Counted from the first letter of the stretch, positions 2,860 through 25,910 are shown. The stretch: 54,393 bases of DNA from a virus (IMGVR_UViG_3300032247_002425:1-54393), one strand, 5' to 3'. The notes: generated from the letters alone by a model not told the origin. Made by a program: numbers and translations.

Positions 2860-2887
2860 TTGACAGCCTGCTGATATCAGCTAAACT
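2860..2887 (+). promoter_or_regulatory. Sigma70-type promoter
   Basis: TTGACA-N16-TAAACT upstream of the 2915 ORF. Confidence 0.55.
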
Positions 2888-4706: not shown

Positions 4707-5963
4707 ATGGCAAAGGACACGATTAACCATTTGTTTTCATGCAGCTTTTGCAGCAAAAACCAGCGTGAAGTTACCAAGCTAATAAGCGGTAATGATGTAT
4801 ACATCTGCAATGAATGCGTGGATCTGTGCCACGGTATACTGCGCGAAGAAAAGATCCAGGCGCGACCAGACACGACTGATCTAACCCCCGCTAAGATAAA
4901 ATCATGGCTTGATGATCGCTTGGTAGGACAAGACCATGCTAAGATGGTATTAAGCGTGGCTGTTTACAACCATATCAAGCGCATCAACAATCCAGTGATA
5001 GACGGCGTAGAGATAGACAAGAGCAACGTGATGTTTGTTGGTCCTACCGGATGCGGCAAGACCTATATGATACAGCAGATAGCCAAGCTATTAGATATAC
5101 CGTTGGTGATCATCGATGCTACGAGCATCACCGAAAGTGGTTATGTTGGTTTGGACGTAGAAGAAACCATAGCCAGACTGTATCAGGCTGCTGACCAAGA
5201 TATCGCCAAGACCGAGCGCGGCATCGTGTATATAGACGAGATCGACAAGAAGAGCCGCAAGAGCGAAAGCAGCAGCATCACACGCGATGTAAGCGGCGAA
5301 GGTGTGCAACAGGGCTTGCTCAAGATACTGGAAGGCTGTGAGGTCAAGGTACCGCCCGCTGGAGGTCGCAAGAATCCACAGGGCGAATTTATAATGGTAA
5401 ACACCAAGAACATATTGTTCATACTTGGTGGTGCGTTTGTTGGATTGAAAGACATCGTAGCCAAACGCCTAGATGTTGGCGGCGGCATTGGATTTGGTGC
5501 TAAGCTAAACAAGCAAGAAAGAAACGATTCTGAAAGCTTTGAGTTGGTCAGCCAAGCCAGACAGGAAGACCTCATCACGTTCGGAATCATCCCAGAGATG
5601 ATTGGTCGCATTCCTGTGATAGTACCATTCAAAGACCTCGACGAGGATGATCTAGTTCGCATACTCACCGAACCCAAGAACGCGATAATCAAACAGTATC
5701 AAAAGATGTTTAGCGTTGATGGAGTTGATCTAGAAGTACAAACATCTGCACTGCGGCTGATAGCACAGCAGGCAAAAGCTCGCAATACAGGAGCACGTGG
5801 CTTGCGCGGTATCATAGAAAATCTACTGCTCAAGAGCCAATTTGATCTGCCCCAACTGAGCAAAGATGGTGTTAGCAAGATCATCATCACTGATGATATG
5901 GTCAACAATGGCAGTGAACCAATGCGGGTGCACAGAGCTGTACCCGAAGCTGCTAACGTCTGA
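4707..5963 (+). CDS. clpX: ATP-dependent Clp protease ATPase subunit ClpX
   Basis: C4 zinc finger CSFC...ICNECV, Walker [13 protein letters not shown] pore loop, Walker [21 protein letters not shown] loop, TGARGLR. Confidence 0.97.
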
Positions 5964-5990
5964 TATGATGCCATTTAGGATAATTAATTA

Positions 5991-6260
5991 ATGGCACGAG
6001 ATTATAAAGACACGTCTGGCGACAGGGAAAGTTGGTCAAACAAGAAAGGCCTCACCGTGCAGGTCTGGAATGGCAACCTCAATAAAGCGTTGAGCCAACT
6101 CAAGAAACGTGTAGCCACAGAAGGCATTGCCAAAGAGCTGCGCAAGCGCAAGAACTTTGAAACCAACACTGCCAAGCGTCGCAGGGCTATGGCAGAAGCC
6201 AAGAGCCGTTGGCGCAAGAAACAATCTCAGTTTGATGGGACTGATAAACGCAGGCCGTGA
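5991..6260 (+). CDS. rpsU: Ribosomal protein bS21 (phage-encoded)
   Basis: V.V.NGNLNKAL..LKKRV..EGI.KELRKRKNFE..T.KRRR pattern; basic 89-aa protein. Confidence 0.85.
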   Translation: MARDYKDTSGDRESWSNKKGLTVQVWNGNLNKALSQLKKRVATEGIAKELRKRKNFETNTAKRRRAMAEAKSRWRKKQSQFDGTDKRRP

Positions 6261-6263
6261 ATA

Positions 6264-8066
6264 TCAGAAGGTCTTGCTCAATGGTACGATAGTGCGTTGG
6301 CTGCTCTGTAATGGATTTTGATTGTTCATAGTGTTGCTAAAACTAACAGCAGACGGTGAACTGCTATTGCCCATGGAAATTGCCATGGTGGTCGTACTGG
6401 ATCCCTGGCGTATGTTTGGTCGAGCGTAGGTTTGTCCTGTGGCAGGTCGAGCACCTACCAGATAGTTTGGATATGTCATACCAGATTGGGTCTGATATAA
6501 TGCTAAGATGCTGGTACCAATTGGACTACCAATACCAGTGCAGGCGTCCCAGCCAGCAGTAGCAACATAGCCCACTGTATTGCCGCCGTGATTATCACCT
6601 ACTGTGATGTCATTGAATGCTGTAGCACTTGCCGTATACCATGTTGGATTTACAAAACCTATGCGGCTGCTGGTCATGCTGTTGAGCCTAGCCATCATGC
6701 CACCCAACAATGGGGCCACTGCACTAGTACCTAAAAACGTTCCACTAGCATTAGTGATGCCATAATAGAAAGTGTATCCAGTGGCCATGGCACTGACATC
6801 AGGAATGCTACGCCCGGTAAGAGTAACAGGGCTGCTCGGGGTAGGATAGGTCTTGCTGGTCAATCCTGTTTGCCAAGTAGGCACGCTGTATATGGTGCTT
6901 ACGCCTCCGCCGCCGGCATATGATCCGCCTGCAGTGCCCCATGCTACTTCACTGGCTATAGTATAGTCATTGTTGATTGTAACAACGGTACCACCTGCGC
7001 CTATGACATATGGACTGGAGCCAGGATATTGCAAAGTATATGTTGGAGCTCCATTTATAGCACGGACTCCAAAATCACCAGTTGCTACGAAAGTGGTAAT
7101 GCCCCTTACTATGGCAGCCTGCAGTGCAGTATCAAACTGTGTGTTGTTTCCGAACCAGTTGCTGTCGGTGGTTCCCCAGCTAATGCTTAGCACACTGGGA
7201 TTGTTGACCATGTCATTTGTAGCAGCTGTGATGCAATCAATGAAACCTTGGAAGCTGTTCGGGGCAAAATACATAGCTATGGTAGCAGCTGGAGCTACTG
7301 CTCCTACGCAATAGATGTCCAACATGACTTCGCCGCTGCTGTTGATATCAGTTGGATCATTTACTCCGCCATCGACACTGACATCAACCACAGTTGGATT
7401 TGGCTGTCCTATCCTACCAAACGTGCTGGTCAGATTCTGTGTGGTCCAACCTCCGCCAAGCTCCACGATACCAACACAGGTATTAGCACCTTGGACTAGA
7501 TCACCGCCTGCGGCTCTAGGAAATTTGTAAGCTAGTGCTAGGTCGACAGGGGTTGGGCTTGAAATCAGATTGGGATCTATGTTGGTTACCATTGCTCCAA
7601 CTGGAGGTGCATCTGGATCTAGTCTAGCATAGGATTCAAAAGTCAATGAATTATCGAGACCTAGCACCAGTTCTACCACGCTGTTGATCTCACTTGGTAT
7701 GGTGATAGTTCCAGAGTGTGTGATATAGCTTCTCGAGCCTGTGCTAACGGTTTCTAGCTTCACAGCAAACAGTTCGTTCATCTGTCCAACAGTACCTTCG
7801 GCTTTGACAGTGGCTATACCAGATCCAAACTCTATTACCACTAAATCGTTGGCGACTGCCCAATCAACTACCAGATTGATCTCATCCTCTACGCTGCCAA
7901 ATTGATACACAAACTCGTCATGATCTAGCGCAGGATGGATCCCGGCCATGACAGCATCTGCATACTCCTGCAGTGTCATGCCGTTCTCGTGACAATCTCT
8001 CCTAAGATAGATGCTGATCAACAGCCTAGCATTGACATCTGCGAAGTTTCTGACAGGTAAGCTCAT
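6264..8066 (-). CDS. Sedolisin/kumamolisin-family (S53) serine peptidase with prodomain
   Basis: GEVMLDI (catalytic E/D), SISWG, ATGD oxyanion Asp, PDVSA, GTSAVAP catalytic Ser, GWDACTGIGSP Ca-site; no signal peptide. Confidence 0.92.
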   Translation of the reverse strand: MSLPVRNFADVNARLLISIYLRRDCHENGMTLQEYADAVMAGIHPALDHDEFVYQFGSVEDEINLVVDWAVANDLVVIEFGSGIATVKAEGTVGQMNELFAVKLETVSTGSRSYITHSGTITIPSEINSVVELVLGLDNSLTFESYARLDPDAPPVGAMVTNIDPNLISSPTPVDLALAYKFPRAAGGDLVQGANTCVGIVELGGGWTTQNLTSTFGRIGQPNPTVVDVSVDGGVNDPTDINSSGEVMLDIYCVGAVAPAATIAMYFAPNSFQGFIDCITAATNDMVNNPSVLSISWGTTDSNWFGNNTQFDTALQAAIVRGITTFVATGDFGVRAINGAPTYTLQYPGSSPYVIGAGGTVVTINNDYTIASEVAWGTAGGSYAGGGGVSTIYSVPTWQTGLTSKTYPTPSSPVTLTGRSIPDVSAMATGYTFYYGITNASGTFLGTSAVAPLLGGMMARLNSMTSSRIGFVNPTWYTASATAFNDITVGDNHGGNTVGYVATAGWDACTGIGSPIGTSILALYQTQSGMTYPNYLVGARPATGQTYARPNIRQGSSTTTMAISMGNSSSPSAVSFSNTMNNQNPLQSSQRTIVPLSKTF

Positions 8067-8067
8067 G

Positions 8068-8913
8068 TTATACCTCGGTCTTTAACAGCGTCAATGTGAC
8101 AGTTATGGCCACAGAAGTATTACCAGTGTTTTGTACCTTGAGGGGTATGCTGGTAGTGGGAGGCGACTCGCTGCTGAAGCCTGCTGCTGCTGGCGTGATA
8201 AGTTGGGTCACAGCTCCTGCTGATATGATTTCAGCTATCACGCCACTGCCTGGAGTTGGATTAGTTGATTGTGCTCTGCTGGCATCTGCAGTTCGTGCTG
8301 CTGTGCTGCTATAGACCGTTACCCATGCGGCATGATCAACCTGTATGCTGTATAGATTATAGCCATTGAATCCCGTTGCAGTCACGGCAGCATTTGATCC
8401 TGCTGCTAGAGTTGTAGTTGTTACGCTGACATTATTCCTACTAGAAACGCTGCCTGCACCGGTTGCCCCAGTTGCTCCTTGTGATCCGGTTGGACCTGTA
8501 GCACCCATACCAGGACCAGTAGGACCATTCTGTCCGGTTGGACCAGTTGCCCCTGTGCCTACAGGACCAGTAGCACCTGCTGAGCCGCTAGCACCAGTTG
8601 GGCCGGTCAGTGACGATGCTGGTCCAGTTGGACCTATACCGGATGGCCCAGTTGGCCCAGTCACGGTTGATGCTGCTCCAGACGGGCCTGTGCGTCCAGT
8701 TGGGCCAGTTGACCCCGTATCACCTTTGCTGGCAGCTGTACCAGGTTGTCCAGTAGGACCAGTGATGCTTGTGCCAGTAGGCCCAGTTATACCTCTGGCT
8801 CCAGTTGGTCCCTGCGTACCAGCTGTACCGCTCTGTCCTATTGCACCTGTCGCCCCAGTAACACCTCGAGCCCCTGTGGCACCAGTTGGGCCAGTGACAT
8901 TGATGGCTGCCAT
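8068..8913 (-). CDS. Collagen-like (G-X-T) virion protein with C-terminal globular domain
   Basis: Long GPT/GAT repeats; start reassigned to ATG 8913 after AAGGAG RBS; TAAATA motif at 8937-8942. Confidence 0.85.
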
Positions 8914-8958
8914 GATGATCTCCTTTGTAGCTAAGATATTTATCGATACCTCCAGATC

Positions 8959-8987
8959 TTGACAGTGGCACACAGACGCATTAAATA
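8959..8987 (+). promoter_or_regulatory. Promoter for hsp20
   Basis: TTGACA 8959-8964 then N17 and TAAATA 8982-8987. Confidence 0.55.
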
Positions 8988-8992
8988 TGTTC

Positions 8993-9052
8993 TGCAGGTG
9001 CCTACGGGGCCTGCACTAGATAATGCTTCGCTTTAACAGGAGGTATCAAATG
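8993..9052 (+). promoter_or_regulatory. ROSE-like RNA thermometer in hsp20 leader
   Basis: UACG-loop hairpin 8993-9015, then AUGCUUC-G-CU/uuaac/AGGAGGUAU hairpin pairing the SD with a bulged G (U(U/C)GCU motif). Confidence 0.7.
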
Positions 9053-9529
9053 CGAAACCAATCTACATATCTATTGCCATCTATGGACGATTTCTTCAGA
9101 GATCTAAATCGATTCGCCATTGGATTTGAACCAATGATCACCAGGATCCACAGCCTGCATCCAAATCAAGCCGCAGGTTATCCGCCCTACAATCTTGAAA
9201 ACGATGGTTCTACCTATCGTTTAGAACTAGCGGTCGCTGGATTCAAGATGGAAGAGCTGGAGATCTATCTAACCAACGATCGTGTGCTCATGGTCAGAGG
9301 CAGCAAAAGCACTGACCAAAGTGAGAGAAATTGGATCCATCGTGGCATTGCCGGTCGTGATTTTGAGCGTCAATTCACTCTAGCAGAGCACATCAAAGTA
9401 GTCAGCGCCAAGCTGGAAGATGGCTTGCTGATCATTGAGCTGGAGCGCGAAGTGCCAGAGGCTACCAAAGGACGTGTGATCCCGATCAGCAACAGCACTG
9501 TCATTGACGTCACGTCTTCAGCAGAATGA
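9050..9529 (+). CDS. ibpA: Small heat shock protein Hsp20 (IbpA-like)
   Basis: GYPPYNL, LELAVAGF, HRGIA.RDFERQFTLAEH, A.LEDGLL.I.L; ATG 9050 after AGGAGG. Confidence 0.95.
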   Translation: MRNQSTYLLPSMDDFFRDLNRFAIGFEPMITRIHSLHPNQAAGYPPYNLENDGSTYRLELAVAGFKMEELEIYLTNDRVLMVRGSKSTDQSERNWIHRGIAGRDFERQFTLAEHIKVVSAKLEDGLLIIELEREVPEATKGRVIPISNSTVIDVTSSAE

Positions 9530-9531
9530 CC

Positions 9532-9560
9532 TTGCACGGACCTGCGATTAGCCTTATAAT
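9532..9560 (+). promoter_or_regulatory. Sigma70-type promoter for clpS
   Basis: TTGCAC-N17-TATAAT. Confidence 0.55.
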
Positions 9561-9582
9561 GTAACATAGACAGGAGGGACCA

Positions 9583-9894
9583 ATGGCCGAGACCAAGAAG
9601 CAAAATGTAGTCGCTGTGATAGAACGTGTTGCCATGGCCCCTCCTCGCATGTGGAATGTATGGTTGGTAAATGATGATCAGACAACCATGGAATTCGTGG
9701 TACTTGTGCTAATGCAGATCTTCCATCGCAGCTTTGAAGAAGCGCAGGATATCATGATGCACATCCATACTAACGGACGCGGAATAGCAGGCACTTACAG
9801 CCATGAAGTGGCCACTCAAAAGCGCGACGAGACTGTTGCTATTGCTAGATCGAGCGGATTTCCACTGGTTGCAGAGCTAAATCCAGCAGAATAA
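9583..9894 (+). CDS. clpS: Clp protease adaptor ClpS
   Basis: PP.MWNVWLVNDDQTTMEFVV.VL..IF, MMHIH..G.GIAG.Y..EVA..K, GFPL. Confidence 0.95.
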   Translation: MAETKKQNVVAVIERVAMAPPRMWNVWLVNDDQTTMEFVVLVLMQIFHRSFEEAQDIMMHIHTNGRGIAGTYSHEVATQKRDETVAIARSSGFPLVAELNPAE

Positions 9895-9898
9895 CCGG

Positions 9899-9926
9899 TT
9901 GACAGCATATAAATCGGTGCTATAGT
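9899..9926 (+). promoter_or_regulatory. Sigma70-type promoter
   Basis: TTGACA-N16-TATAGT with TGC immediately before the -10. Confidence 0.65.
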
Positions 9927-9976
9927 CATAATGCAAATGAAGCTTGTCAAACGACAATGCAACTAGGAGACTGCAA

Positions 9977-10270
9977 ATGACTGCATACGTTACACAGGCT
10001 GAGAAAGTTCTCAGCTATCTCACCAAGGGCAACACGCTCACGGCCAAGCAAGCACGCGCTCGCTTCAAGATCCAGAACCTCCGCGCTCGCATCCATGAGC
10101 TCAAGCAGGAAGGTCACAATATTGGTACCAAGCCAGTTACCTATCGTGACACGGGTGCCGACGGTGTTGCATACACGCTGGTCATGCCTAAGAAGGTTGC
10201 CAAGACCAAAGCTGCAAAAGCTCCTGCTAAGCCAGCTACCAAGCCAGCTACCAAAGGCGGCAAGAAGTAA
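9977..10270 (+). CDS. Winged HTH DNA-binding protein with Lys/Ala/Pro-rich tail
   Basis: Q.EKVLSYL..G.TLT..QA..RF.I.NLRARI.EL+.EG..I; ATG 9977 after AGGAG; histone-like KAPAKPATK tail. Confidence 0.75.
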   Translation: MTAYVTQAEKVLSYLTKGNTLTAKQARARFKIQNLRARIHELKQEGHNIGTKPVTYRDTGADGVAYTLVMPKKVAKTKAAKAPAKPATKPATKGGKK

Positions 10271-10335
10271 TCACTAAGAACTTGTTAGGGTAAGCTTACC
10301 CGAAGCGCAAAGCGTGTACAAGTCTAGGGAGGTAG

Positions 10336-10364
10336 AAGGGTTCCAGGAAACTGGGACCCTTTTT
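10336..10364 (+). terminator. Intrinsic terminator between convergent genes
   Basis: AAGGGTTCCAG-GAAA-CTGGGACCCTT followed by T-run. Confidence 0.8.
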
Positions 10365-10825
10365 CATCTATATCTGTGTTTCAGCTCAGTGATACGATCG
10401 TCTAATGCAGCGATTAACTGCTGCATGGGTATGCTGTTTTCTCGATAGCCAGTAGCAACAAAATCCACATATTCCGGTGTAGGTGGCAGATCGCTGTGAT
10501 GCTTGCCCAGCATCACGTAGGTCATGGCCTTGATTATCTTGCCGCGATATTCTATTGGTATGATCTTGTGTCTATATATCTTGTGATAACCTTCTACCCA
10601 ATCTAGCTTGTCCAGCTTCTGTACAGGGACAATCCATAAGACACCATGAACAGTGTCTCCTTTGGATTCTACCACGTTGCTGACATTTTCCAGCACGTAC
10701 CTGTGGTCTGGTAGATCAGCATGTCCTATAAGCTGGGCTTCTGGCACACGCTTGTACATCTCTTCGAGATTGGTATTGTGCCCATATGCAAAATAGGGTA
10801 TGTGTTCCCAGGCTGCCATGATCAC
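10364..10825 (-). CDS. Gamma-glutamylcyclotransferase (AIG2-like)
   Basis: YFAYG.N, V.GVLW, LD.VEG...Y motifs; ATGA overlap with upstream gene. Confidence 0.85.
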   Translation of the reverse strand: MIMAAWEHIPYFAYGHNTNLEEMYKRVPEAQLIGHADLPDHRYVLENVSNVVESKGDTVHGVLWIVPVQKLDKLDWVEGYHKIYRHKIIPIEYRGKIIKAMTYVMLGKHHSDLPPTPEYVDFVATGYRENSIPMQQLIAALDDRITELKHRYR

Positions 10826-11727
10826 TCGCTGCTGTGCTGCATCTTAGGGAATGGTTTTGTACCCATCTCCTTGCGATGATCGTACAATACCCTGTTGCTG
10901 AGTATCTCTACCCAGCACTTGTTTTGAGGATGGTTGAGATCCCAGAAGTTGAAGCTCATGTGGCTCTGCACTGGACGCACAGCAAAGGTGTTTTCGCTGG
11001 GTGTGACCATGATCTGGCTGGTGGTGCGCATCATCTTCTTTTGGTCTGTGGTGCGTAGGCAATTGAGCTGTGGGTTATCGATGTAGACACCAGCAAGTCC
11101 GTCTATCATCTCCTGAGGTGAGTTGGCAGCATTTACAACTCTTTCGGCTATGAGCTTGCGACTTTCGCTGCTGAGCCTGCTCATGGTATGCGAAGTACCT
11201 GGATTATGCTTCTGCTGACCTTCTGGCTGATAACCAGCCCAGGGCAAACCAACACCGTGATTGGTACGTACCACGGATTTATCTCTGGGTATCTCCATGA
11301 CCTTGTAGGCGTATTTTTCGTTCTCATACTCACCCGGCTCCCAGCAACCTTCTAAGAGGTAGCAAGTGTCCTTGTCAAAAATCAGCGTGTTACCAGGCAG
11401 CTTGTCCTTGATCAGGCTCATGGTCGCTGCTTTGACGTTGGGATATCGCAGTGCCTTCCTCAGCTTGGCGCCATCCTTGCTGGGCGTCTTGCTGCGCACC
11501 TGTATCTCCATCTCATCGTCCTTGACCATGAGGCTGGCACTTATGATGCTGACGCCGCCCGAATTCATGCCCTCGCAGTATTGCGTGATGTCATCCCAGA
11601 ACATCATGATCTCAACACCATCGTGTTCTTGGCGTTTGAAGCTGATCTCTGGAATATAGTTGCGGTCTCGGTTCTTGACACCGACCCAACCAACATCGGG
11701 AAAGAACTTAGCAGATACAACGCACAC
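10822..11727 (-). CDS. N-terminal nucleophile (Cys) hydrolase, C45/NRDE-like
   Basis: Begins M-C-V-V, KNRDR, EGMN..G, VRTNH; GTG start after GGAG; TAAATA motif at 11746-11751. Confidence 0.7.
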   Translation of the reverse strand: MCVVSAKFFPDVGWVGVKNRDRNYIPEISFKRQEHDGVEIMMFWDDITQYCEGMNSGGVSIISASLMVKDDEMEIQVRSKTPSKDGAKLRKALRYPNVKAATMSLIKDKLPGNTLIFDKDTCYLLEGCWEPGEYENEKYAYKVMEIPRDKSVVRTNHGVGLPWAGYQPEGQQKHNPGTSHTMSRLSSESRKLIAERVVNAANSPQEMIDGLAGVYIDNPQLNCLRTTDQKKMMRTTSQIMVTPSENTFAVRPVQSHMSFNFWDLNHPQNKCWVEILSNRVLYDHRKEMGTKPFPKMQHSSE

Positions 11728-11755
11728 AGGGATTCTCCAATATATTATTTATCTG

Positions 11756-11784
11756 TTGTACATCTTTGAATCATGTGATATAAT
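11756..11784 (+). promoter_or_regulatory. Sigma70-type promoter, probably producing leaderless mRNA
   Basis: TTGTAC-N17-TATAAT ending 5 nt before ATG 11790; no SD. Confidence 0.55.
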
Positions 11785-11789
11785 TTGCC

Positions 11790-12134
11790 ATGACTGAAGA
11801 AATCAAACACAAGATAATAGCCAATCTGCGCCAGGTTTATGATCCTGAGATCAGCACCAACATCTATGATCTTGGATTGATCTACAAGATCGATCTTGAT
11901 CACTTACCCAAAGCGCTAATAGAAATGACCTTGACTTCGGCATGGTGTCCCAGTGCAGAAGATATCATGCGTGATGCTGAAGAGGCTGGTACAGTTGAAG
12001 GTGTTGACAAGTGCGAGATAAAGATAGTATGGACACCACAATGGGGACCGCACATGATGAGCGAAGAAGCACAGCTAGAGCTCAACATGATGCAGGATTT
12101 TGATGATAGATCTGGTTGGGGACCACCCTATTGA
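11790..12134 (+). CDS. DUF59/SufT-like Fe-S cluster assembly protein
   Basis: L..VYDPEI..NIYDLGLIY, MTLTS.WCP, VW.PQW.P.MMSEEA.L.L. Confidence 0.9.
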   Translation: MTEEIKHKIIANLRQVYDPEISTNIYDLGLIYKIDLDHLPKALIEMTLTSAWCPSAEDIMRDAEEAGTVEGVDKCEIKIVWTPQWGPHMMSEEAQLELNMMQDFDDRSGWGPPY

Positions 12135-12772
12135 CCACCATACACATAGAACCAAGTTCACGTTGTACTATTGCCTGTCCGCAGTGTCCTCGTACTGAAT
12201 ACATCAGTCGTATTCACTCCAAAGACTGCGACATTCCTGCCATGGTAGCCGCATGTCGAGGATATGACGATGTGCTCATGTGTGGTAATCACGGTGATCC
12301 AATTTATCACAGGGATTTCCATTCACTGGTCAAAGCGTTGCGCAATGACTGCTCTGACAGAAGCATACGCATAATAACCAATGGTGCATTCCGCGGGCAG
12401 CAATGGTGGGAAACCACAGCTGACCTGTTGAGACATGATAGAGATAGCATAAGCTTTAGCATAGACGGATTGCCCTATAACAATCATCTGTATAGGATCA
12501 ACAGTGATTGGTCAAGCATAGAGATTGCTATCAAGACACTACAGCGAGTCAATCCCACACTGCGTCTAGCTTGGAAATGGATCGTTTTCAAACACAATGA
12601 AAATGATGCACTAGCTGCTATCTCGCTGGCTCGTGAGCTGGGCATGGACCGATTCACGCTGGTCAGCAGTGCGAGGTACGAGCAAGATCATTGGTTAACT
12701 CCAACTAAGTCTTTTTCTGAGATCAAAAGAAAGGTCATAGAATGGTATCAGTCACACCCCGTTGCAAATTGA
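12131..12772 (+). CDS. Radical SAM protein (core domain only)
   Basis: CTIACPQCPR CxxxCxxC, CGNHGDP, ITNG, FSIDG; TTG start overlapping upstream stop. Confidence 0.88.
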   Translation: MTTIHIEPSSRCTIACPQCPRTEYISRIHSKDCDIPAMVAACRGYDDVLMCGNHGDPIYHRDFHSLVKALRNDCSDRSIRIITNGAFRGQQWWETTADLLRHDRDSISFSIDGLPYNNHLYRINSDWSSIEIAIKTLQRVNPTLRLAWKWIVFKHNENDALAAISLARELGMDRFTLVSSARYEQDHWLTPTKSFSEIKRKVIEWYQSHPVAN

Positions 12773-13080
12773 AAGTGGTCGAACCATACATATCCTCGGC
12801 CCTGGACTACTATCCCTGTTGTTGGATAGCCAACGAACCTCATCTAAGTGATCTACGAGAATGGCTGGCTGATGATTTTTCACAACTTAGCCTGCTGGAG
12901 CAAAGCTTAGATGCGGTGTTGCACAGTCGTGCTATGCAGCGCATTGAATCAAGTTGGATCGAAGGCACTCTTGAACCCTGTGTCAAATTTTGCAGCGCGC
13001 CGTTTGATCAGACTGGATCTAACCGGCGTGACAAGCACATTAGCCTGTCTCTAAATGTGCACAAGATAGATGAATGGTAA
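12742..13080 (+). CDS. Stand-alone SPASM/twitch-like Cys-rich domain
   Basis: PRC...YIS....YYPCCW...CVKFC pattern, normally the C-terminal domain of the preceding radical SAM type. Confidence 0.65.
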   Translation: MVSVTPRCKLKVVEPYISSALDYYPCCWIANEPHLSDLREWLADDFSQLSLLEQSLDAVLHSRAMQRIESSWIEGTLEPCVKFCSAPFDQTGSNRRDKHISLSLNVHKIDEW

Positions 13081-13096
13081 ACAAACGGAGAATAGA

Positions 13097-14305
13097 ATGA
13101 CCAACCCAATATTAAAAATGGAACTAGCCCACGGTGATGTGCTAATCGAGTGCTATCCAGATAAAGCTCCAAATCACGTGGCGCAGATAATCCGCCAGGC
13201 CAATTCTGGACTTTATGACGACACTGACTTCCACCGGGTAATAGAAGGCTTTATGGCACAAGGCGGCTGGACCAAGCAACCTCTGCCGCAGCTTCAAGCC
13301 GAATTCAATGATGTCTCTCACACAGAAGGCATCTGCAGCATGGCGCGAACCAATGATCCTAACAGTGCCAGCGATCAGTTCTTTATCTGCTTTGGTAATG
13401 CTCAGTTCCTGGATAGACAATATACTGTATGGGGCAAGGTGATCTACGGAATGCAGCATGTGCATGCGATCACTCGCGGCGAACCGCCGCAGAATCCTAC
13501 CAAGATAGTGAAGATGCGGCAGCTGAGCATGCAGGCTGTAGAATCTCTGCAACCCATGGCTGATGGATCAGTAGTGTACAAGAATACTATCAACGGTCCG
13601 TTGATCATGTTGAAAAACGATTGGTGGATCAAGCATGGAATGGAAAACATTGATCTGATCAATCAGGAACTGCATCAGTTCGATCAATTGATCAAGCTCG
13701 CCAGGCAGCTACGTCCAGAGCTTAACAGCGTGATTGACGGTGGATCAAACATGGGATCGTGGACCATGCCTCTGGCACGGGCTAACAGGGATGTTGAATT
13801 CCATACCTTTGAAGTGCAAAAATTAGTATACTACATCAGCTGCGGTAATTTTGCGCTAAACGGCGTGACCAATGTCTATGCTAACTGGGCCGGCTTGACC
13901 GACCAAGAAGGTCTGATAGGCCTACCAATACCAAACTATGATAGCTCACAGAATTTTGGATCATTTGAAGTTGCACCTCCGTTTGCCAACAGCGATTGCG
14001 TGTTAACATATACAGGCAAGATTGACATAGTTAGGACCGTGACCATAGACAGCCTAGAGCTATCTCCGGTGCTGATCAAGCTAGACATAGAAGGCATGGA
14101 ATATCGCGCATTGAACGGCGGTATCAATACTATTGATTCGCATATACCAATAGTTTGGTGCGAAAGCCAAAAGAGTGATCCGGTTGCAGTCACAGGTTTC
14201 TTTGCTACCCGAGGTTATGTGCTCAGCATGGCTATAGAAGGTCACTGGTTGTTCATCCCACCTTGGTTGCAGGGTAATACAAGCTTAGAATCAATATTGG
14301 GATAA
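13097..14305 (+). CDS. Cyclophilin-type PPIase fused in frame to an FkbM-family methyltransferase
   Basis: N-half FHRVIEGFMAQGG, SMAR...PNSA..QFFI, FLD.QYTVWGKV; C-half IDGGSNMG, FEVQ, NFG, IKLDIEGME; ATG 13097 after GGAG. Confidence 0.85.
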   Translation: MTNPILKMELAHGDVLIECYPDKAPNHVAQIIRQANSGLYDDTDFHRVIEGFMAQGGWTKQPLPQLQAEFNDVSHTEGICSMARTNDPNSASDQFFICFGNAQFLDRQYTVWGKVIYGMQHVHAITRGEPPQNPTKIVKMRQLSMQAVESLQPMADGSVVYKNTINGPLIMLKNDWWIKHGMENIDLINQELHQFDQLIKLARQLRPELNSVIDGGSNMGSWTMPLARANRDVEFHTFEVQKLVYYISCGNFALNGVTNVYANWAGLTDQEGLIGLPIPNYDSSQNFGSFEVAPPFANSDCVLTYTGKIDIVRTVTIDSLELSPVLIKLDIEGMEYRALNGGINTIDSHIPIVWCESQKSDPVAVTGFFATRGYVLSMAIEGHWLFIPPWLQGNTSLESILG

Positions 14306-14313
14306 CACAAACA

Positions 14314-14745
14314 ATGTGGTGGGAGACTACCAAGCTTGAAGACATGGATGAGGCACAGTGGGAAAGCCTGTGCGATGGCTGCGGCCGCTGCTGCCTCACC
14401 AAAGCCTGGCAGGACGGTAAAGTAGTACAGACCAGAGTAGCCTGTAGATTGATGGATATTAAAACGGCATGCTGCACTGATTACCCCCATAGGCAAAACA
14501 AAGTACATGAGTGCATCAAGCTAGTACCCGGCAATGTAGGTCATCCTCTGTTGCCTCGCACCTGTGCGTATCTGTTAATACATGAAGGTAAGCCGCTGGA
14601 ATGGTGGCATCCATTGGTGAGCGGTAGTAAAGACACAGTGAAGCAGGCAGGTATTAGCATCATAGGTGATATCCAGCACACCGAACGTACCATGAGCTTG
14701 GCCAAGATGGCACTTTTCAAAGCATTGGACAGGGCAATACCTTGA
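14314..14745 (+). CDS. ycgN: YcgN/UPF0260 cysteine-cluster protein
   Basis: WESLCDGCGRCCL, T.VAC.L.D, C..Y..R, LP.TCAY, WHPL.SG. Confidence 0.9.
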   Translation: MWWETTKLEDMDEAQWESLCDGCGRCCLTKAWQDGKVVQTRVACRLMDIKTACCTDYPHRQNKVHECIKLVPGNVGHPLLPRTCAYLLIHEGKPLEWWHPLVSGSKDTVKQAGISIIGDIQHTERTMSLAKMALFKALDRAIP

Positions 14746-14772
14746 CAATGACACACCAAATGACTATATAAT
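14742..14772 (+). promoter_or_regulatory. Promoter for dnaK
   Basis: CTTGACA then CTATATAAT about 17 nt later; compatible with alphaproteobacterial RpoD or RpoH-style consensus. Confidence 0.55.
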
Positions 14773-14774
14773 AT

Positions 14775-14832
14775 TCATGGTCGGGCTACGGCCGGCCATG
14801 ACACAATCTTGCTTTATGAGGAGATAGAAATG
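14775..14832 (+). promoter_or_regulatory. ROSE-like RNA thermometer in dnaK leader
   Basis: UACG-loop hairpin 14775-14801, then AUCUU-G-CU/uuaug/AGGAGAU hairpin sequestering the SD with a bulged G. Confidence 0.65.
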
Positions 14833-16686
14833 AGCAAAGTGATCGGTATTGACCTTGGAACCACCAACAGCTGCGTGGCTGTGATCGAAGGTGGCAAGGC
14901 CAAAGTTCTAGAAAACGCAGAAGGTGCTCGCACCACACCCAGCATCGTGGGATTCAAGGATGGCGAGACGCTAGTCGGTGCACCTGCAAAGAGACAGGCT
15001 GTGACTAACCCTAAAAATACGCTGCATGCAGTTAAGAGATTGATCGGTCGTCGCTATGAAGACGACAGCGTGCAGAAAGACAAGAAGCTGCTGAGCTACG
15101 CAATCGTAGCAGCCGCCAACGGCGATGCCTGGGTAGAAGTCGACGGCAAGAAGATGAGCCCTAGCGAAGTAAGCGCCAAGATATTGACCAAGATGAAAGA
15201 GACAGCCGAGCGCTATCTTGGTACCACAGTTGATCAAGCAGTGATCACTGTACCAGCCTACTTCAACGATAGCCAGCGACAGGCTACCAAGGACGCAGGC
15301 AAGATCGCAGGCATGGAAGTGCTGCGCATCATCAACGAGCCAACAGCTGCTGCTTTAGCCTATGGACTGGACAAGAAGCAAGCGGGCAAGATCGCGGTTT
15401 ACGATCTCGGCGGTGGTACCTTTGACGTTTCAATACTTGAACTGGGCGATGGCGTGTTTGAAGTGCTCAGCACCAACGGTGACACACAGCTGGGCGGCGA
15501 AGACTTTGACCTGCGCATCGTGGACTTCCTAGCAGACACTTTCAAGACAGAACAGGGCATCGATCTCCGCAAGGACAACATGGCACTGCAGCGCCTCAAG
15601 GAAGCTGCAGAGAAGGCCAAGATAGAGCTGTCAAGCAGCGCAAGCACGGACATTAACCTGCCATACATCACAGCTGACAAGGATGGCCCCAAGCATCTCA
15701 CCGTCACACTGTCACGCAGCAAGCTGGAAAGCTTGGTTGATGACCTGGTCACCCGCACGCAGGGACCATGCCGCAAGGCACTGGCAGATGCAGGTTTACA
15801 GGCTGGCGATATCAGCGAAGTGATATTGGTTGGCGGCCAGACACGCATGCCCAAGGTGCAGCAGGCTGTGAAAGATATCTTCAAGCGTGATCCCAGCCAG
15901 GGCGTTAACCCAGACGAAGTGGTTGCCATGGGTGCTGCCATCCAGGGCGGGGTGCTACAGGGCGATGTCAAGGACGTGCTGCTGCTAGATGTGACTCCAC
16001 TGAGCCTGGGCATTGAAACGCTGGGTGGCGTGTTCACCAAGCTGATTGAACGCAACACCACCATACCTACCAAGAAGAGCCAAGTGTTCAGCACTGCTGC
16101 TGACAACCAGCCAGCTGTGAGCATTGCAGTGTTCCAAGGCGAACGACAGATCGCTCGGGACAACAAGAGTTTGGCCAACTTTGAACTTACTGGTATAGCA
16201 CCAGCACCTCGGGGCATGCCGCAGATCGAAGTGACCTTTGACATCGATGCCAACGGTATCGTGCATGTCAGTGCCAAGGATCAAGCCACTGGCAAGGAAC
16301 AGAAGATTGCTATCCAAAGCAGCGGTGGGCTCAGTGATGATGACATAGAACGCATGGTACGCGAAGCTGAGGAAAACGCCGAAGCTGACAAGCGTAAGCG
16401 TGAAGTCATCGAAACACGCAACGGTGCTGAGACTCAGATCCACATGGCTGAAAAGCAGCTTAAAGAACATGAAGACAAGATCCCAGCTGAACTCAAGGCT
16501 GAGGTTGAAGCAGCTATCACTGAAGCACGTACTGCCATCGCAGGTGATGATCTCGATGCTATGAAGCCAGTGTTAGAACGTTTTGGCCAAACGCTGATGA
16601 AGATCGGCGAGATCGTCTACAAGGCACAGAGCACACCTCCTAGCCCAGACGAGCCAATTGATGTAGAAGCTAAGCCAGCTGAGTGA
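14830..16686 (+). CDS. dnaK: Molecular chaperone DnaK (Hsp70)
   Basis: [55 protein letters not shown]; ATG 14830 after GAGGAG. Confidence 0.98.
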
Positions 16687-16692
16687 TAACCA

Positions 16693-17136
16693 ATGACGCG
16701 TGTGGGACGGATCGGATTTACATGCAGCACATTTGATCTGTTCCACGCAGGTCACATAGCTATGCTGGAAGAAGCCAAGCGCAGTTGTGATTGGCTGATT
16801 GCAGGCATACAGAGCGATCCAACGCTGGACAGGGCTACCAAGAACCGACCAGTACAGAGCATCGTAGAGCGTCAGATACAGGTCAGAGGTTGTAGATTTG
16901 TAGATGAAACGTGGATCTATGATACAGAACGAGACCTAGAAGATCTGTTGAACATACTGCCCATTGACGTTCGCATACTGGGAGATGAATATCGAGGCAA
17001 GCAGTTCACTGGTCTAAAGATCTGCGAGGAACGAGGCATTGATATAGTGTTCAACCAGAGGCGGCACGATTTCAGCAGCAGTGGCCTGCGAGCCAGGGTT
17101 TATGATCTAGAGCGTATGAAAAAGAAAGATCAGTAA
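16693..17136 (+). CDS. Cytidylyltransferase (TagD/glycerol-3-phosphate CT-like)
   Basis: FDLFHAGH (HxGH), R.H.FSSS.LR motifs. Confidence 0.88.
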   Translation: MTRVGRIGFTCSTFDLFHAGHIAMLEEAKRSCDWLIAGIQSDPTLDRATKNRPVQSIVERQIQVRGCRFVDETWIYDTERDLEDLLNILPIDVRILGDEYRGKQFTGLKICEERGIDIVFNQRRHDFSSSGLRARVYDLERMKKKDQ

Positions 17137-17897
17137 TGCACAGCGAAACAATCACTGAAGTAACTCATTGGACAGATAGGCTGATGAGCATACGTACCAC
17201 TCGAGGACCTGCACTGCGATTCCAATCCGGACAGTTTACCATGATCGGATTGCCAGTAGATGGCAGACCTCTGTTGCGTGCCTACAGCATCGTTAGCCCA
17301 CACTATGAAGACCATTTGGAGTTCTACAGCATCAAGGTTACAGATGGTCCGCTGACCAGCAGGTTACAGCATGTTACAGTAGGAGATCAGCTGATAGTTG
17401 GTCCAAAGCCTGTGGGCACCTTGATGTTAGATAACCTGCTGCCTGGACGCAACCTTTGGTTCTTGGCCACGGGCACAGGTATTGCCCCATTCCTCAGCCT
17501 CATGCGAGATCCCATTGCCTATGAGCGTTACGATCGTGTGGTCCTCATACATGGTTGCAGGCAAGCTGCTGAACTGGCGTATGGTGCCAAGATGGTCAAT
17601 GATCTGCGCGGCAATGAGTTGATTGCAGAATTCAATGACAAGCTGGTGTACAGAGCAATCACCACCAGAGAACCGTCCCCCGTCATGGGTCGTATAACCG
17701 ACATGATCACAGATGGTAGATTATGGGCAGCGACAGGACTGCCAGAGATAGATGCTGCTCAGGACCGCGTGATGATCTGCGGTAGTACTGCTATGACCGT
17801 TGATCTCACTGAGATCATGCTAGCGCGTGGATTTACCGAAGGCAGCGCCTTCGTTCCTGGCGGATTTGTCTACGAGAAATCCTTCGTAGATCGTTGA
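17136..17897 (+). CDS. fpr: Ferredoxin/flavodoxin-NADP+ reductase
   Basis: RAYSI.S, GPLTSRLQ, ATGTGIAPF, MICGS, EKSFV C-terminus. Confidence 0.93.
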   Translation: MHSETITEVTHWTDRLMSIRTTRGPALRFQSGQFTMIGLPVDGRPLLRAYSIVSPHYEDHLEFYSIKVTDGPLTSRLQHVTVGDQLIVGPKPVGTLMLDNLLPGRNLWFLATGTGIAPFLSLMRDPIAYERYDRVVLIHGCRQAAELAYGAKMVNDLRGNELIAEFNDKLVYRAITTREPSPVMGRITDMITDGRLWAATGLPEIDAAQDRVMICGSTAMTVDLTEIMLARGFTEGSAFVPGGFVYEKSFVDR

Positions 17898-17903
17898 TAT
17901 TGG

Positions 17904-17931
17904 TTGACAGATTGCAGAACTATGCTAAATT
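17904..17931 (+). promoter_or_regulatory. Sigma70-type promoter
   Basis: TTGACA-N16-TAAATT with TGC before the -10. Confidence 0.55.
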
Positions 17932-17959
17932 AACATGTGATCCAACGAGGAGATCTAGG

Positions 17960-18298
17960 ATGCGCAAGATTATCGCAACTGCTTTGGCTTTGACCTTGAT
18001 GACGGGCTCTGCTATGGCAGATGGATGGGGATATGGACGTGGGCCTTGCAATTTCAACGGCTGCTACGGTGGGCACGGCGGGTATCACCAACACTATCAC
18101 GGTGGCGGCGGTGGTAACTGGGCTGCACCACTGGTTGGTGGGTTGATCATCGGCGGCATGCTTGGTGCCATGAGCCAACCTCGCTACTATCAAGAACAAC
18201 CAGCTTATCATACCGAGTGCCGCTGGGAACAGATGTATGATAACTGGGGCAACTACATTGGCAACGGGCGTCGTTGCTATAACGTTCCAAACTATTGA
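17960..18298 (+). CDS. Exported Gly/Tyr-rich protein with signal peptide
   Basis: MRKIIATALALTLMTGSAMA signal, Gly-rich linker, GGLIIGGMLGA hydrophobic stretch; ATG 17960 after GAGGAG. Confidence 0.75.
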   Translation: MRKIIATALALTLMTGSAMADGWGYGRGPCNFNGCYGGHGGYHQHYHGGGGGNWAAPLVGGLIIGGMLGAMSQPRYYQEQPAYHTECRWEQMYDNWGNYIGNGRRCYNVPNY

Positions 18299-18299
18299 G

Positions 18300-18327
18300 T
18301 TGACAGATCATGCGAGCGTGCTATAGT
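18300..18327 (+). promoter_or_regulatory. Sigma70-type promoter for the arfA-like gene
   Basis: TTGACA-N16-TATAGT with TGC before the -10. Confidence 0.7.
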
Positions 18328-18354
18328 ACCTCTGTTATCATAGAGGAGGTACCT

Positions 18355-18483
18355 GTGCGCAATGCTTACGCAAAAGCTCTCGCCCATCCAGTATTCAGAC
18401 AGCGCAAGGTCGCTGCCCGCAAGGGCAAAGGCGCCTACAAGCGCACAGCCAAGCATGTCCAAAAGCCAACCCTGGACGTTTGA
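18355..18483 (+). CDS. arfA: ArfA-like alternative ribosome rescue factor, 42 aa (not in ORF track)
   Basis: GAGGAGGT RBS, GTG start; MRNAYAKALAHPVFRQRKVAARKGKGAYKRTAKHVQKPTLDV matches the ArfA core N...L..P.FRQR....KGKG(S/A)Y.R..KH. Confidence 0.8.
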   Translation: MRNAYAKALAHPVFRQRKVAARKGKGAYKRTAKHVQKPTLDV

Positions 18484-18733
18484 CAATACCTGGTGGCATG
18501 CTGAGAGCCAATCTTTGCGACGCAAGATCAACAGCTTGCCCTATGATACCAAACGCGAAATGACCAAGCTGTTTGAAGCCTGTGAGGATCAGGCCATGGC
18601 CATATGGCGCGAAGAGATAACCTGCAGATATCGCAATTCTCAAACTGAGAAACACGCTGCTCTGATGTCTAAGTTCTTGCAATCACACAGCAATCTAGAA
18701 CAGCATGTGGTTATGGCCCTGCTGATGATCTAG
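18455..18733 (+). CDS. Hypothetical protein (start reassigned to ATG 18455)
   Basis: C-terminal part of track ORF 18362-18733; upstream part is occupied by the ArfA-like frame. Confidence 0.6.
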   Translation: MSKSQPWTFDNTWWHAESQSLRRKINSLPYDTKREMTKLFEACEDQAMAIWREEITCRYRNSQTEKHAALMSKFLQSHSNLEQHVVMALLMI

Positions 18734-21285: not shown

Positions 21286-21340
21286 CCAATTACCTGCAAA
21301 ATTATCTATAATTTCAATGACATAAATGTCAACAAAACGG

Positions 21341-23496: not shown

Positions 23497-23555
23497 TTAT
23501 TTGATAGCTCTCCGATCGTGCCACATAATTACTGGTGTAACGATCGGAGACTACA

Positions 23556-24269
23556 ATGGAATTAACACAAGACATGGTCAAGGTGCTGCAAGCAGCCAGG
23601 GTTCACTTCTGTATCCCTTGCTACGGTGGCCAGATCAATGAAGGCACCTTCATCAGCATGCTGAAATACATGGCCACGGCACAGCGCCTTGGGTTGAATT
23701 TCACCATCGATACCATGGTAAACGAAAGCCTCGTTTGCCGCGCTCGCAACAGCTTGGTGGCCAAGATGCTGTACTTCGAACCCAAGAGCACACACTTGAT
23801 GTTTGTGGACGCAGACATTGGTTTCGAACCAGAAGAGATCTTCAAGTTGATCATTGCCGATCGAGATGTGGTTGGCGGTTTGTATCCCAAGAAAGCCCTG
23901 CCTATCAGCTATGTGGTCAACAAGGTCCCAGGTGCTGTCAAGGAAGGTAACTTGGTGGAAGTGGCCAATCTGGGCACTGGCTTCATGATGATCAAGCGCC
24001 ACGTGCTGGAGCAGATGATCGCCAAGCACCCAGAGCTGCACTATGTGGACAGCATTGGATTGGATCCCAAGTACGATCCGTTCAAGTATGCGCTGTTTGA
24101 CACAGAGATTGACAACGACAGCAAGGAATATCTGTCAGAAGACTACACCTTCTGCAAGCGTTGGCGGGCCATGGGCGGCAAGATCTGGGCAGACCTGACC
24201 ATCACGCTGAACCACATAGGCTACTTCACCTTCCGCGGTGATGCTACACAGCTACAGCCTCATCTCTAA
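23556..24269 (+). CDS. Glycosyltransferase-like protein (GT-A fold)
   Basis: PCYGG, ESLV.RARN, FVDADI, GTGFMMI.R, YLSEDY.FC.RW...GG.IWAD, L.H.G. Confidence 0.8.
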   Translation: MELTQDMVKVLQAARVHFCIPCYGGQINEGTFISMLKYMATAQRLGLNFTIDTMVNESLVCRARNSLVAKMLYFEPKSTHLMFVDADIGFEPEEIFKLIIADRDVVGGLYPKKALPISYVVNKVPGAVKEGNLVEVANLGTGFMMIKRHVLEQMIAKHPELHYVDSIGLDPKYDPFKYALFDTEIDNDSKEYLSEDYTFCKRWRAMGGKIWADLTITLNHIGYFTFRGDATQLQPHL

Positions 24270-24287
24270 AATGAGATACCACGGCGC

Positions 24288-25442: not shown

Positions 25443-25452
25443 GTGCTGGCCA

Positions 25453-25481
25453 TTGACGCTGTGCAGCTGTTACGTTACAAT
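25453..25481 (+). promoter_or_regulatory. Sigma70-type promoter, probably leaderless
   Basis: TTGACG-N17-TACAAT ending 5 nt before ATG 25487. Confidence 0.55.
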
Positions 25482-25486
25482 AGTGC

Positions 25487-25906
25487 ATGACCCATTATTA
25501 TTTTGCCTATGGGCGCAACACCAACATCAAGACCATGCAGGAACGCTGCCCGCGAGCAGTGTGTCTTGGGCCCAGCTGGGTTGATGGGTATGTGTTCCGC
25601 TGGCGCGGTGTAGCTGATTTAGATATGTCCCCAGATGACTACGTGATAGGTGTGCTCTGGGAACTCAACGATGGTGATCTGGCTGCGCTGGATTGGTACG
25701 AAGGTTTTCCGCGCAAATACTTCAGGCAGCGAGTGATAGCCAAGACCAGCCAGCAGGAATATACAAGCTGGGCCTACATGATGGTAAACCCTGGTGAGCA
25801 ATCAGCACCCAAGGACGAGTATCGCACGGCATTGTTTGAAGGTTATGCTGAAAATGACATCAGCACTGATCAGCTTGAACGCGAGCTCAAACGGCTCAAT
25901 AGTTAG
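25487..25906 (+). CDS. Gamma-glutamylcyclotransferase (second copy)
   Basis: YFAYG.N, M.ERCP.A, GVLWE, LDWYEGFP..Y. Confidence 0.88.
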   Translation: MTHYYFAYGRNTNIKTMQERCPRAVCLGPSWVDGYVFRWRGVADLDMSPDDYVIGVLWELNDGDLAALDWYEGFPRKYFRQRVIAKTSQQEYTSWAYMMVNPGEQSAPKDEYRTALFEGYAENDISTDQLERELKRLNS

Positions 25907-25910
25907 AGAG

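Follow-up and report, generated by a model that had tools for sequence, protein, structure and literature searches.

The closest described counterparts of the RNA leaders considered here are the thermometers of Pseudomonas ibpA (ROSE_3, RF02523), in which approximately 55-60 nt in front of a small heat-shock gene form two hairpins, the first GC-rich and the second a short one whose U(U/C)GCU word is imperfectly paired to the Shine-Dalgarno (SD) element around a bulged G, leaving the AUG unpaired (PMC3669281). RNA thermometers of phages are rare in print, a 2024 paper counting lambda cIII, SPbeta blyA and one gut-phage fourU element (PMC11182007), and a literature search of titles and the openings of abstracts returned no report of ROSE-like thermometers on phage dnaK or hsp20. 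Here we analyse an entire viral record, IMGVR_UViG_3300032247_002425 (54,393 bases, hereafter the window), and describe ROSE-like leaders in front of its two heat-shock genes, hsp20 and dnaK, which lie in a span (4707-18483) together with genes for ClpX, bS21, ClpS, a cyclophilin and a short homologue of ArfA.

In E. coli, the arfA gene has no stop codon, and trans-translation represses it (PMC10107115). The positively charged C-terminal part of the protein fills the empty mRNA tunnel, while an N-terminal minidomain, consisting of residues 2-16 and the Leu19/Leu24/Phe25 patch, folds in a manner coupled to the opening of release factor 2 (RF2) (PMC5378476). Phage genes for ArfA have been reported in pelagiphage HTVC027P (gp30; PMC12753301) and annotated in Citromicrobium phage vB_CbaS-RXM (gp10, with approximately five residues before the aligned part). 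Larger gene sets are described for two phages with large T4-like genomes, namely Agrobacterium phage Atu_ph07, encoding ClpX, ClpA, ClpB, ClpP, ClpS and DnaJ (PMC6102473), and Sinorhizobium phage AP-J-162, encoding six Clp proteins including ClpX as well as Hsp20, DnaJ, GroES, bS21, L7/L12, IF-3 and tmRNA (PMC11242549). The locus differs from both in that its ClpX is only 51-55% identical to theirs and their genes are scattered over the genome; the passages of their papers covered by the comparison mention neither ArfA nor an RNA thermometer, and DnaK appears there for Atu_ph07 only in the title of a reference (PMC6102473, PMC11242549). Full-length Hsp70 is also encoded in the very large genomes of huge phages and Lak phages (LR756502, MK250016 and others), but these DnaK proteins are 52-58% identical to that of the window. 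The initial annotation had regarded the combination of genes and its regulation as apparently new. Given the published sets of Atu_ph07 and AP-J-162 (PMC6102473, PMC11242549) and the published phage ArfA (PMC12753301), there is nothing new in itself about a large phage having Clp, chaperone and bS21 genes together; what is new and can be tested is the ROSE-like leader shared by the two phage heat-shock genes, which several large aquatic phage lineages have conserved.

Searches with the ArfA homologue and DnaK as queries yielded 82 loci from viral contigs (numbered L below). Eight contigs are close relatives, with DnaK 81-99% and other proteins 35-99% identical to those of the window, and in most of them DnaK stands out at 95-99% from other proteins at 35-90%; by locus, DnaK identity is 95-99% in L001-L006, L008 and L020, 81% in L007 and 72% in L009. 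Two remoter, AT-rich lineages, one represented by the mutually identical L011-L014 and the other by L018, have DnaK proteins that are 66-67% identical.

The hsp20 and dnaK leaders of the window measure 52-56 nt and are situated between the predicted promoters and the start codons, that is, in the 5' untranslated region of heat-shock genes. Each comprises a GC-rich 5' hairpin (hairpin I) followed by U(U/C)GCU, a short loop and AGGAG, a layout that fits the published definition of ROSE-like elements (PMC11182007, PMC11342760, PMC3669281), including the short form known for ibpA, which has two hairpins, the first of them GC-rich, and an AUG free of pairing (PMC3669281). Sequence around the two leaders is far less conserved than the leaders themselves, and the dnaK leader is nearly invariant in close relatives. 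Applied to seven hsp20 leaders, RNAalifold predicted a second hairpin (hairpin II) of nine pairs, eight of them kept in all seven sequences and the closing pair in five, in which AUGCUUC(G)CU pairs with AGGAGGUAU around the bulged G. The start of hsp20 is placed at the ATG at 9050, because the spacing between SD and ATG varies in relatives and puts the upstream ATG out of frame. In the dnaK alignment, compensatory changes occur at nine of the ten pairs of hairpin I, in L007 or L009. Every lineage has a hairpin I, of differing sequence, and the AT-rich sister clades have the same build before both dnaK and hsp20 although their hairpin I sequences are quite different. When pairs were counted by script across leaders, the five core pairs of hairpin II and the bulged G could be formed in all 18 distinct leaders, and the outer pairs within the window clade were U-A and A-U in dnaK as against C-G and G-U in hsp20. 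Both hairpin I and the U(U/C)GCU word are lacking from five further window leaders that follow TTGACA promoters. A 9-nt perfect complement of the hsp20 SD at 8945-8953, at the start of the divergent collagen-like gene, was considered as an anti-SD sequence and discarded; since it lies upstream of the hsp20 promoter, it is probably outside the transcript.

The distribution of the motif agrees with this picture. Over the window and the 82 loci, searched on both strands (1,282,094 bases), T[TC]GCT-N3-9-AGGAG-N3-12-ATG matched 36 times where 3.45 matches were expected and where 20 simulations gave at most six; 21 of the matches stand before dnaK, 14 before hsp20 and one elsewhere. Like the window itself, every locus whose DnaK reaches 65% identity (20 loci on 18 contigs) has the motif at dnaK, and none of the 62 other, more distant viral DnaK loci does. 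A ROSE family was the best Rfam match for five of six leader snippets. The AT-rich L013 leaders aligned to ROSE_3 over its full length, with 32.3 bits (E 1.3e-5) for dnaK and 25.5 bits (E 6e-4) for hsp20; the L018 dnaK leader scored 16.8 bits with ROSE_3, and the window leaders matched ROSE with 15.4 bits (E 1.7) for dnaK, aligned to UUGCU/GGAGGA, and 12.3 bits (E 7.3) for hsp20. The L004 hsp20 leader gave no ROSE match.

Promoter-like sequences stand out in the window. Perfect TTGACA-N15-18-TAWADW sites number six against 0.06 expected, a count reached in none of 100 shuffles, and they include sites before hsp20 (8959), dnaK (14742) and arfA (18300), as well as before a winged-helix gene (9899) and a small gene (17904); good matches of promoter type are also located at 2860 and 18746. 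A perfect TTGACA site at 21305-21332 on the minus strand has no obvious downstream gene. The clpX and bS21 genes follow a gene for a 595-aa membrane and coiled-coil protein and have no promoter of their own, and clpS begins 53 nt past hsp20, where the sole candidate promoter combines, as we read it, a perfect TATAAT with a -35 hexamer matching at three of six positions. Unrelated genes are interspersed, coding for an S53 peptidase, a collagen-like protein, GGACT and Fe-S assembly proteins, a radical SAM enzyme, a YcgN-like protein, a cytidylyltransferase and a ferredoxin-NADP reductase (FNR). From sequence, then, the seven genes are arranged in at least four separate putative units behind sigma70-like promoters and not in one operon.

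Our preferred reading, held with reasonable confidence, is that these are separate sigma70-type units of genuine phage genes, of which the hsp20 and dnaK units carry short ROSE-type leaders, accompanied by a short ArfA. Two units, hsp20(-clpS) and dnaK(-cytidylyltransferase-FNR), would share the leader, in which a stable 5' hairpin is followed by a weak hairpin II that would pair U(U/C)GCU, around a bulged G, with the SD. Host RNA polymerase would transcribe hsp20 and dnaK constitutively, and the closed hairpin II would throttle translation until heat opened it and translation increased. The phage would thereby have a temperature-responsive chaperone pair of its own without host sigma32. The locus differs from the ibpA thermometers in that it is phage-encoded, its promoters look sigma70-type instead of sigma32-type, the element stands before dnaK as well as before a small heat-shock gene, and its leaders score 12-32 bits in Rfam against gathering scores of 43-45. 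If the leaders work in this manner, phages carry a regulatory RNA along with the chaperone gene and stress-responsive expression is freed from the host sigma32 circuit. At approximately 55 nt, the leaders are short and easily tested in reporters.

Several observations weigh against the thermometer. All Rfam scores of the leaders are under the gathering score (ROSE 45, ROSE_2 65 and ROSE_3 43 bits), and an Rfam search over the entire window returned no hit at E values up to 1. By nearest-neighbour calculation, hairpin II reaches just -3.2 to +1.2 kcal/mol at 37 C, and single-sequence folds from the predicted transcription starts, which are themselves predictions, leave the SD in a loop (z -1.8 and -1.2). 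The minimum-energy folds of the dnaK leader pair UUGCUU with GAGCAA at +4 to +9 (14809-14814 with 14832-14837; codons 2-3), and because of this competing partner the predicted SD pairing probability is below 0.1 in window-clade dnaK leaders; it is approximately 0.22 in the window hsp20 leader. In the model, SD pairing barely depends on temperature in the window, L004 and L020 leaders, whereas it is predicted to drop with temperature in the L005 hsp20, L007 and L013 leaders, in the last from 0.63 to 0.40 and from 0.55 to 0.38. Covariation gives little support, as the hairpin II stems are nearly invariant, and the motif counts are not independent events, as the loci share descent. A search for expression data found none.

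The conserved U(U/C)GCU-loop-AGGAG leader might instead be something other than a thermometer, such as an operator for an RNA-binding protein of the phage or the host, a structure enclosing SD and AUG in a loop by way of +4 to +9, or, with hairpin I, mainly an mRNA-stabilising 5' end. We regard this as unlikely, though it deserves to be taken seriously: the pairing of UUGCUU with GAGCAA in the dnaK minimum-energy folds is invariant in eight of eight sequences, hairpin II is very weak by energy, and 5'-terminal hairpins are known stabilisers of mRNA. On the other hand, the +4 to +9 partner is absent from L013 dnaK, L013 hsp20 and L018 hsp20, all of which keep the word and its spacing to AGGAG, the L013 leaders align to ROSE_3 over its full length at the E values given above, and the element is confined to the two heat-shock genes. 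We consider it likely that the leaders are genuine regulatory elements of the ROSE kind, and slightly more likely than not that they respond to temperature. Of the SD-sequestering leaders proposed in the initial annotation, the special leaders on both heat-shock genes are borne out, while sequestration of the SD is a well-supported prediction that comes from comparison and not from energy.

The arfA-like gene most likely starts at the GTG at 18355, preceded by the SD GAGGAGGT; the annotated ATG at 18310 falls inside the arfA promoter. Among five relatives, differences by codon position amount to 62/52/160 after the GTG, with a third-position excess, and to 50/34/55 in the 45 nt before it, with none. 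An ATG or Met occupies the GTG position in the L005 DNA and in two homologous proteins. A profile search of 1.84 billion representatives gave 90 families, and of the 89 representative homologues outside the gene's own cluster, 28 have no more than three residues ahead of the GTG position and 42 are at most 50 aa long; all 16 close homologues carry PF03889. On the grounds of promoter overlap, codon-position pattern, ATG or Met in homologues and the short homologues, the protein is most likely 42 aa long and represents a widespread short form.

This protein aligns to residues 14-48 of E. coli ArfA (PF03889; PDB 5u4i, 5mdv, 5h5u), covering the central and C-terminal part (NA...P.FRQR...KGKG.Y.R..KH) with its charged tail, in which RKGKGAYKRTAKH aligns to the E. 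coli KKGKGSYMRKGKH stretch; its size is near that of the processed, active E. coli form. It probably binds the empty mRNA channels of stalled ribosomes, and it may recruit RF2. The region of the Leu19/Leu24/Phe25 patch aligns, but the Pfam match spans profile positions 15-43 only, and the protein most likely starts at the equivalent of E. coli residue 12, so that with the 42-aa start the tip of the minidomain, approximately its first 11 residues, is missing, a point that counts against the preferred reading. A complex prediction with E. coli RF2 and the 42-aa ArfA part scored 0.11, under the threshold, and gave no answer. Further differences from E. coli are that the gene is carried by a phage, ends in an in-frame TGA stop codon (18481-18483) and has no 3' hairpin, its 3' region folding no better than shuffled sequence (z -0.14). 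With such a stop and no hairpin, the E. coli type of non-stop control under repression by tmRNA should not apply, and given its own promoter, strong SD and real stop codon, the phage ArfA should be produced regardless of tmRNA activity. It would thus be a naturally "always-on" version of a factor that tmRNA controls in bacteria, and might throw light on how phages deal with stalled ribosomes. The gene resembles those for HTVC027P gp30 and vB_CbaS-RXM gp10 as a small phage gene with an ArfA domain, but these belong to small or mid-size alphaproteobacterial phages, have no chaperone neighbours and share approximately 49-53% identity over 37-38 residues. An SD-pairing hairpin in the arfA leader was rejected, as it requires a transcription start inside the -10 box and its pairing is broken in L001 and L002.

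Gene order is conserved around these genes. As far as each contig reaches, the close relatives have the order TM (transmembrane)/coiled-coil protein, ClpX, bS21, S53 peptidase, collagen-like protein, Hsp20, ClpS ... DnaK, ArfA, RIIA, with clpX copies 74-75% identical in L004 and L020. In the AT-rich lineages, the TM/coiled-coil protein, bS21, DnaK, Hsp20 and ClpS are encoded within 8 kb, next to genes for heme oxygenase, bilin reductase and a 2OG (2-oxoglutarate) oxygenase. A core of bS21, DnaK, Hsp20 and ClpS is thus found together in three lineages, in all of which clpS adjoins hsp20 and the membrane/coiled-coil protein is encoded just upstream of clpX or bS21 (43-73% identity; e.g. L013 5131-6852). 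Neither ArfA nor ClpX was found in records of the sister clade; both were seen in the window clade alone. Co-occurrence, which the initial annotation suggested checking, has two sides: the neighbourhood is kept in close relatives, and its core in two remoter lineages, but as ArfA and ClpX are missing from the sister-clade records, the genes do not always travel as one set.

The initial annotation went further and envisaged one coordinated system, in which the phage supplies only specificity subunits (ClpX, ClpS, DnaK, Hsp20, bS21 and ArfA), borrows ClpP, ClpA, DnaJ, GrpE and RF2 from the host, and may shift stalled ribosomes from tmRNA tagging to tag-free release, which could aid the production of giant fibres. 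Its starting observation holds, as profile searches of the window for ClpP, DnaJ, GrpE, SmpB and Clp_N (the ClpA N-domain) gave no match and Rfam found no tmRNA there; moreover, the arfA stop codon and promoter leave no tie to tmRNA activity, ORFs (open reading frames) of 962-1893 aa lie nearby, and the neighbourhood is kept in relatives. Yet the record represents only approximately 10% of a genome, from which the absence of host-type cores is unreadable, and the sister clade with the same bS21-DnaK-Hsp20-ClpS core does encode such partners: its 117-kb and 78-kb records have ClpP 6 kb from dnaK and, elsewhere, a row of a full DnaJ (283 aa, J domain and DnaJ_C), peptide deformylase and a ClpA of 748 aa. 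Searches of five records found neither GrpE nor SmpB, and the tmRNA search gave only a 56-nt sub-threshold match in the record G001, which we do not count. Likewise, cultured Atu_ph07 has ClpA, ClpP and DnaJ beside ClpX and ClpS, and AP-J-162 has DnaJ and six Clp proteins (PMC6102473, PMC11242549). The separate units are mixed with unrelated genes, several promoters and opposite-strand genes lie in between, and neither ArfA nor ClpX turned up in the records of the sister clade. If it had any effect, an additional ClpX would increase the capacity for degrading SsrA-tagged chains. For these reasons we consider the coordinated system improbable; the borrowing of host cores is rather unlikely, given the fraction of the genome at hand and the ClpP, ClpA and DnaJ of the sister clade and jumbo phages. 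A single integrated rescue-and-proteostasis system is not established, cooperation between the genes is at most something we infer, and a link between the module and the making of giant fibres would be purely conjectural. Taken as a whole, the initial interpretation keeps its genes, its absences within the window, its special leaders and its conserved neighbourhood, and loses the single system or operon and the borrowed cores. In the sister clade, the DnaJ-peptide deformylase-ClpA row was located at L084 (G001 22500-27800), and L013 has genes for heme oxygenase, tryptophan halogenase, bilin reductase and ClpP beside its chaperone module (12771-18568).

We read the record, on its gene content, as a fragment of a large, distant, rIIA-bearing, T4-like tailed phage, in which the span would be part of an early or auxiliary region. 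CheckV gives a completeness of 10, hence the figure of approximately 10% used above. The window encodes an RIIA homologue (21394-23496; phrog_612, E 3.5e-105), whose best matches, mostly from T4-like phages, are approximately 27-37% identical, and a collagen-like tail fibre (49091-50497). That the genes are instead host DNA, either the flank of a provirus or a mis-binned bacterial island with ordinary housekeeping genes, we consider highly improbable. IMG/VR does label the record "provirus", and cellular homologues exist for all seven genes, but the contig also carries RIIA and tail-fibre genes, the order is conserved in at least eight related viral contigs, and the usual bacterial gene pairings clpP-clpX, clpS-clpA and dnaK-dnaJ are absent from the window. 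ARAGORN found neither tRNA nor tmRNA over the window. A megablast of the whole span against phage records gave no match, and the top DnaK identities in the phage collection, which includes bacterial-looking records, are approximately 64-67%; both results count against host DNA. As no more than a hint of habitat, two DNA runs from other studies that are labelled freshwater metagenome contain 22-24% of words sampled from 8900-18500. A profile scan of genome contigs with the ArfA alignment found no relative, hence no clue to the host.

With the phage origin in place, a broader and more tentative proposal may be made, which we put forward as a possibility rather than an expectation: a widespread group of large aquatic T4-like phages may run a miniature heat-shock response, with dnaK and hsp20 constitutively transcribed by host sigma70 under ROSE-type thermometers, which would be the first of that type in viruses and also act on dnaK, plus, in the window clade, a constitutive, tmRNA-independent short ArfA that keeps ribosomes free.

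The features are collected in Table 1. All seven genes named initially, at their respective positions, score above the curated Pfam cut-offs by which gene identities were assigned, and the phage ClpX, bS21, Hsp20, ClpS, cyclophilin, DnaK and short ArfA are genuine and probably functional. The ClpX translation displays words that we take to be Walker A and B, GYVG and IGF. PHROGs families cover six of the seven genes, the cyclophilin-FkbM fusion being matched through its methyltransferase part only, and there is no PHROGs family for the ArfA homologue. In L002 and L004, the match to the fusion is limited to approximately 150 residues, corresponding to the cyclophilin part.

Table 1. Genes, predicted promoters and leader hairpins in the window.
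Feature	Position	Strand	Details
Predicted sigma70-like promoter before TM/coiled-coil gene, clpX and bS21	2860..2887	+	TTGACA, 16-nt spacer, TAAACT; 10/12 matches
Membrane/coiled-coil protein, 595 aa	2915..4702	+	N-terminal membrane segments, long coiled coil
clpX	4707..5963	+	zf-C4_ClpX 59.9 bits, AAA_2 102 bits (C4 zinc finger and one AAA+ module)
bS21 homologue, 89 aa	5991..6260	+	44.9 bits, cut-off 27; phrog_21469
Predicted sigma70-like promoter, hsp20	8959..8987	+	TTGACA, 17-nt spacer, TAAATA; conserved in relatives
hsp20 leader, predicted hairpin I	8994..9014	+	GC-rich, at predicted 5' end; aligned to hairpin 1 of Rfam ROSE
hsp20 leader, predicted hairpin II	9023..9046	+	UCGCU word, bulged G (9030), paired to AGGAGG (9038-9043)
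hsp20, 159 aa	9050..9529 (ORF 9023-9529)	+	62.6 bits; phrog_432
clpS, 103 aa	9583..9894	+	96.1 bits, cut-off 23
Cyclophilin peptidyl-prolyl isomerase (PPIase) fused to FkbM-type methyltransferase	13070..14305	+	122.8 and 40.1 bits
Predicted sigma70-like promoter, dnaK	14742..14770	+	TTGACA, 17-nt spacer, TATATA; conserved in relatives
dnaK leader, predicted hairpin I	14776..14800	+	Compensatory changes at 9 of 10 pairs (L007 or L009)
dnaK leader, hairpin II (proposed)	14806..14825	+	AUCUU(G)CU with AGGAGAU, 7 pairs, loop UUAUG
dnaK, 618 aa	14830..16686 (ORF 14809-16686)	+	898.7 bits, HSP70 profile positions 1-598 of 599
Predicted sigma70-like promoter, arfA-like	18300..18327	+	TTGACA, 16-nt spacer, TATAGT; 11/12 matches; conserved in L002
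arfA-like	18355..18483 (annotated ATG 18310)	+	PF03889, 35.4 bits, cut-off 25.5

Other parts of the record contain further genes of some interest. Between bS21 and hsp20, the minus strand (6264-8973) encodes a 600-aa peptidase of the S53 pro-kumamolisin type and a 301-aa protein with collagen repeats, a pair that is conserved in relatives. Five consecutive giant ORFs of 1834, 1893, 1331, 1451 and 962 aa occupy 25911-49035 on the minus strand, with the tail fibre at 49091-50497 next to them; the sole match over a Pfam cut-off among the five is Laminin_G_3, in the 1331-aa ORF. At 10364-13080 and again at 24288-25906, a small ORF comes after the radical SAM gene in each case, two GGACT (AIG2-like) genes are close by, and the pair of radical SAM gene and small ORF is duplicated in L001 (2904-4748); together, these genes may constitute a peptide-modification set. 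Finally, a 237-aa ORF at 23556-24269 on the plus strand, which bears a distant likeness to the window's first ORF (phrog_1574), shows 99% identity across L001, L002 and L005, as against 49-96% for its neighbours, which would point either to unusually strong conservation or to recent gene exchange.

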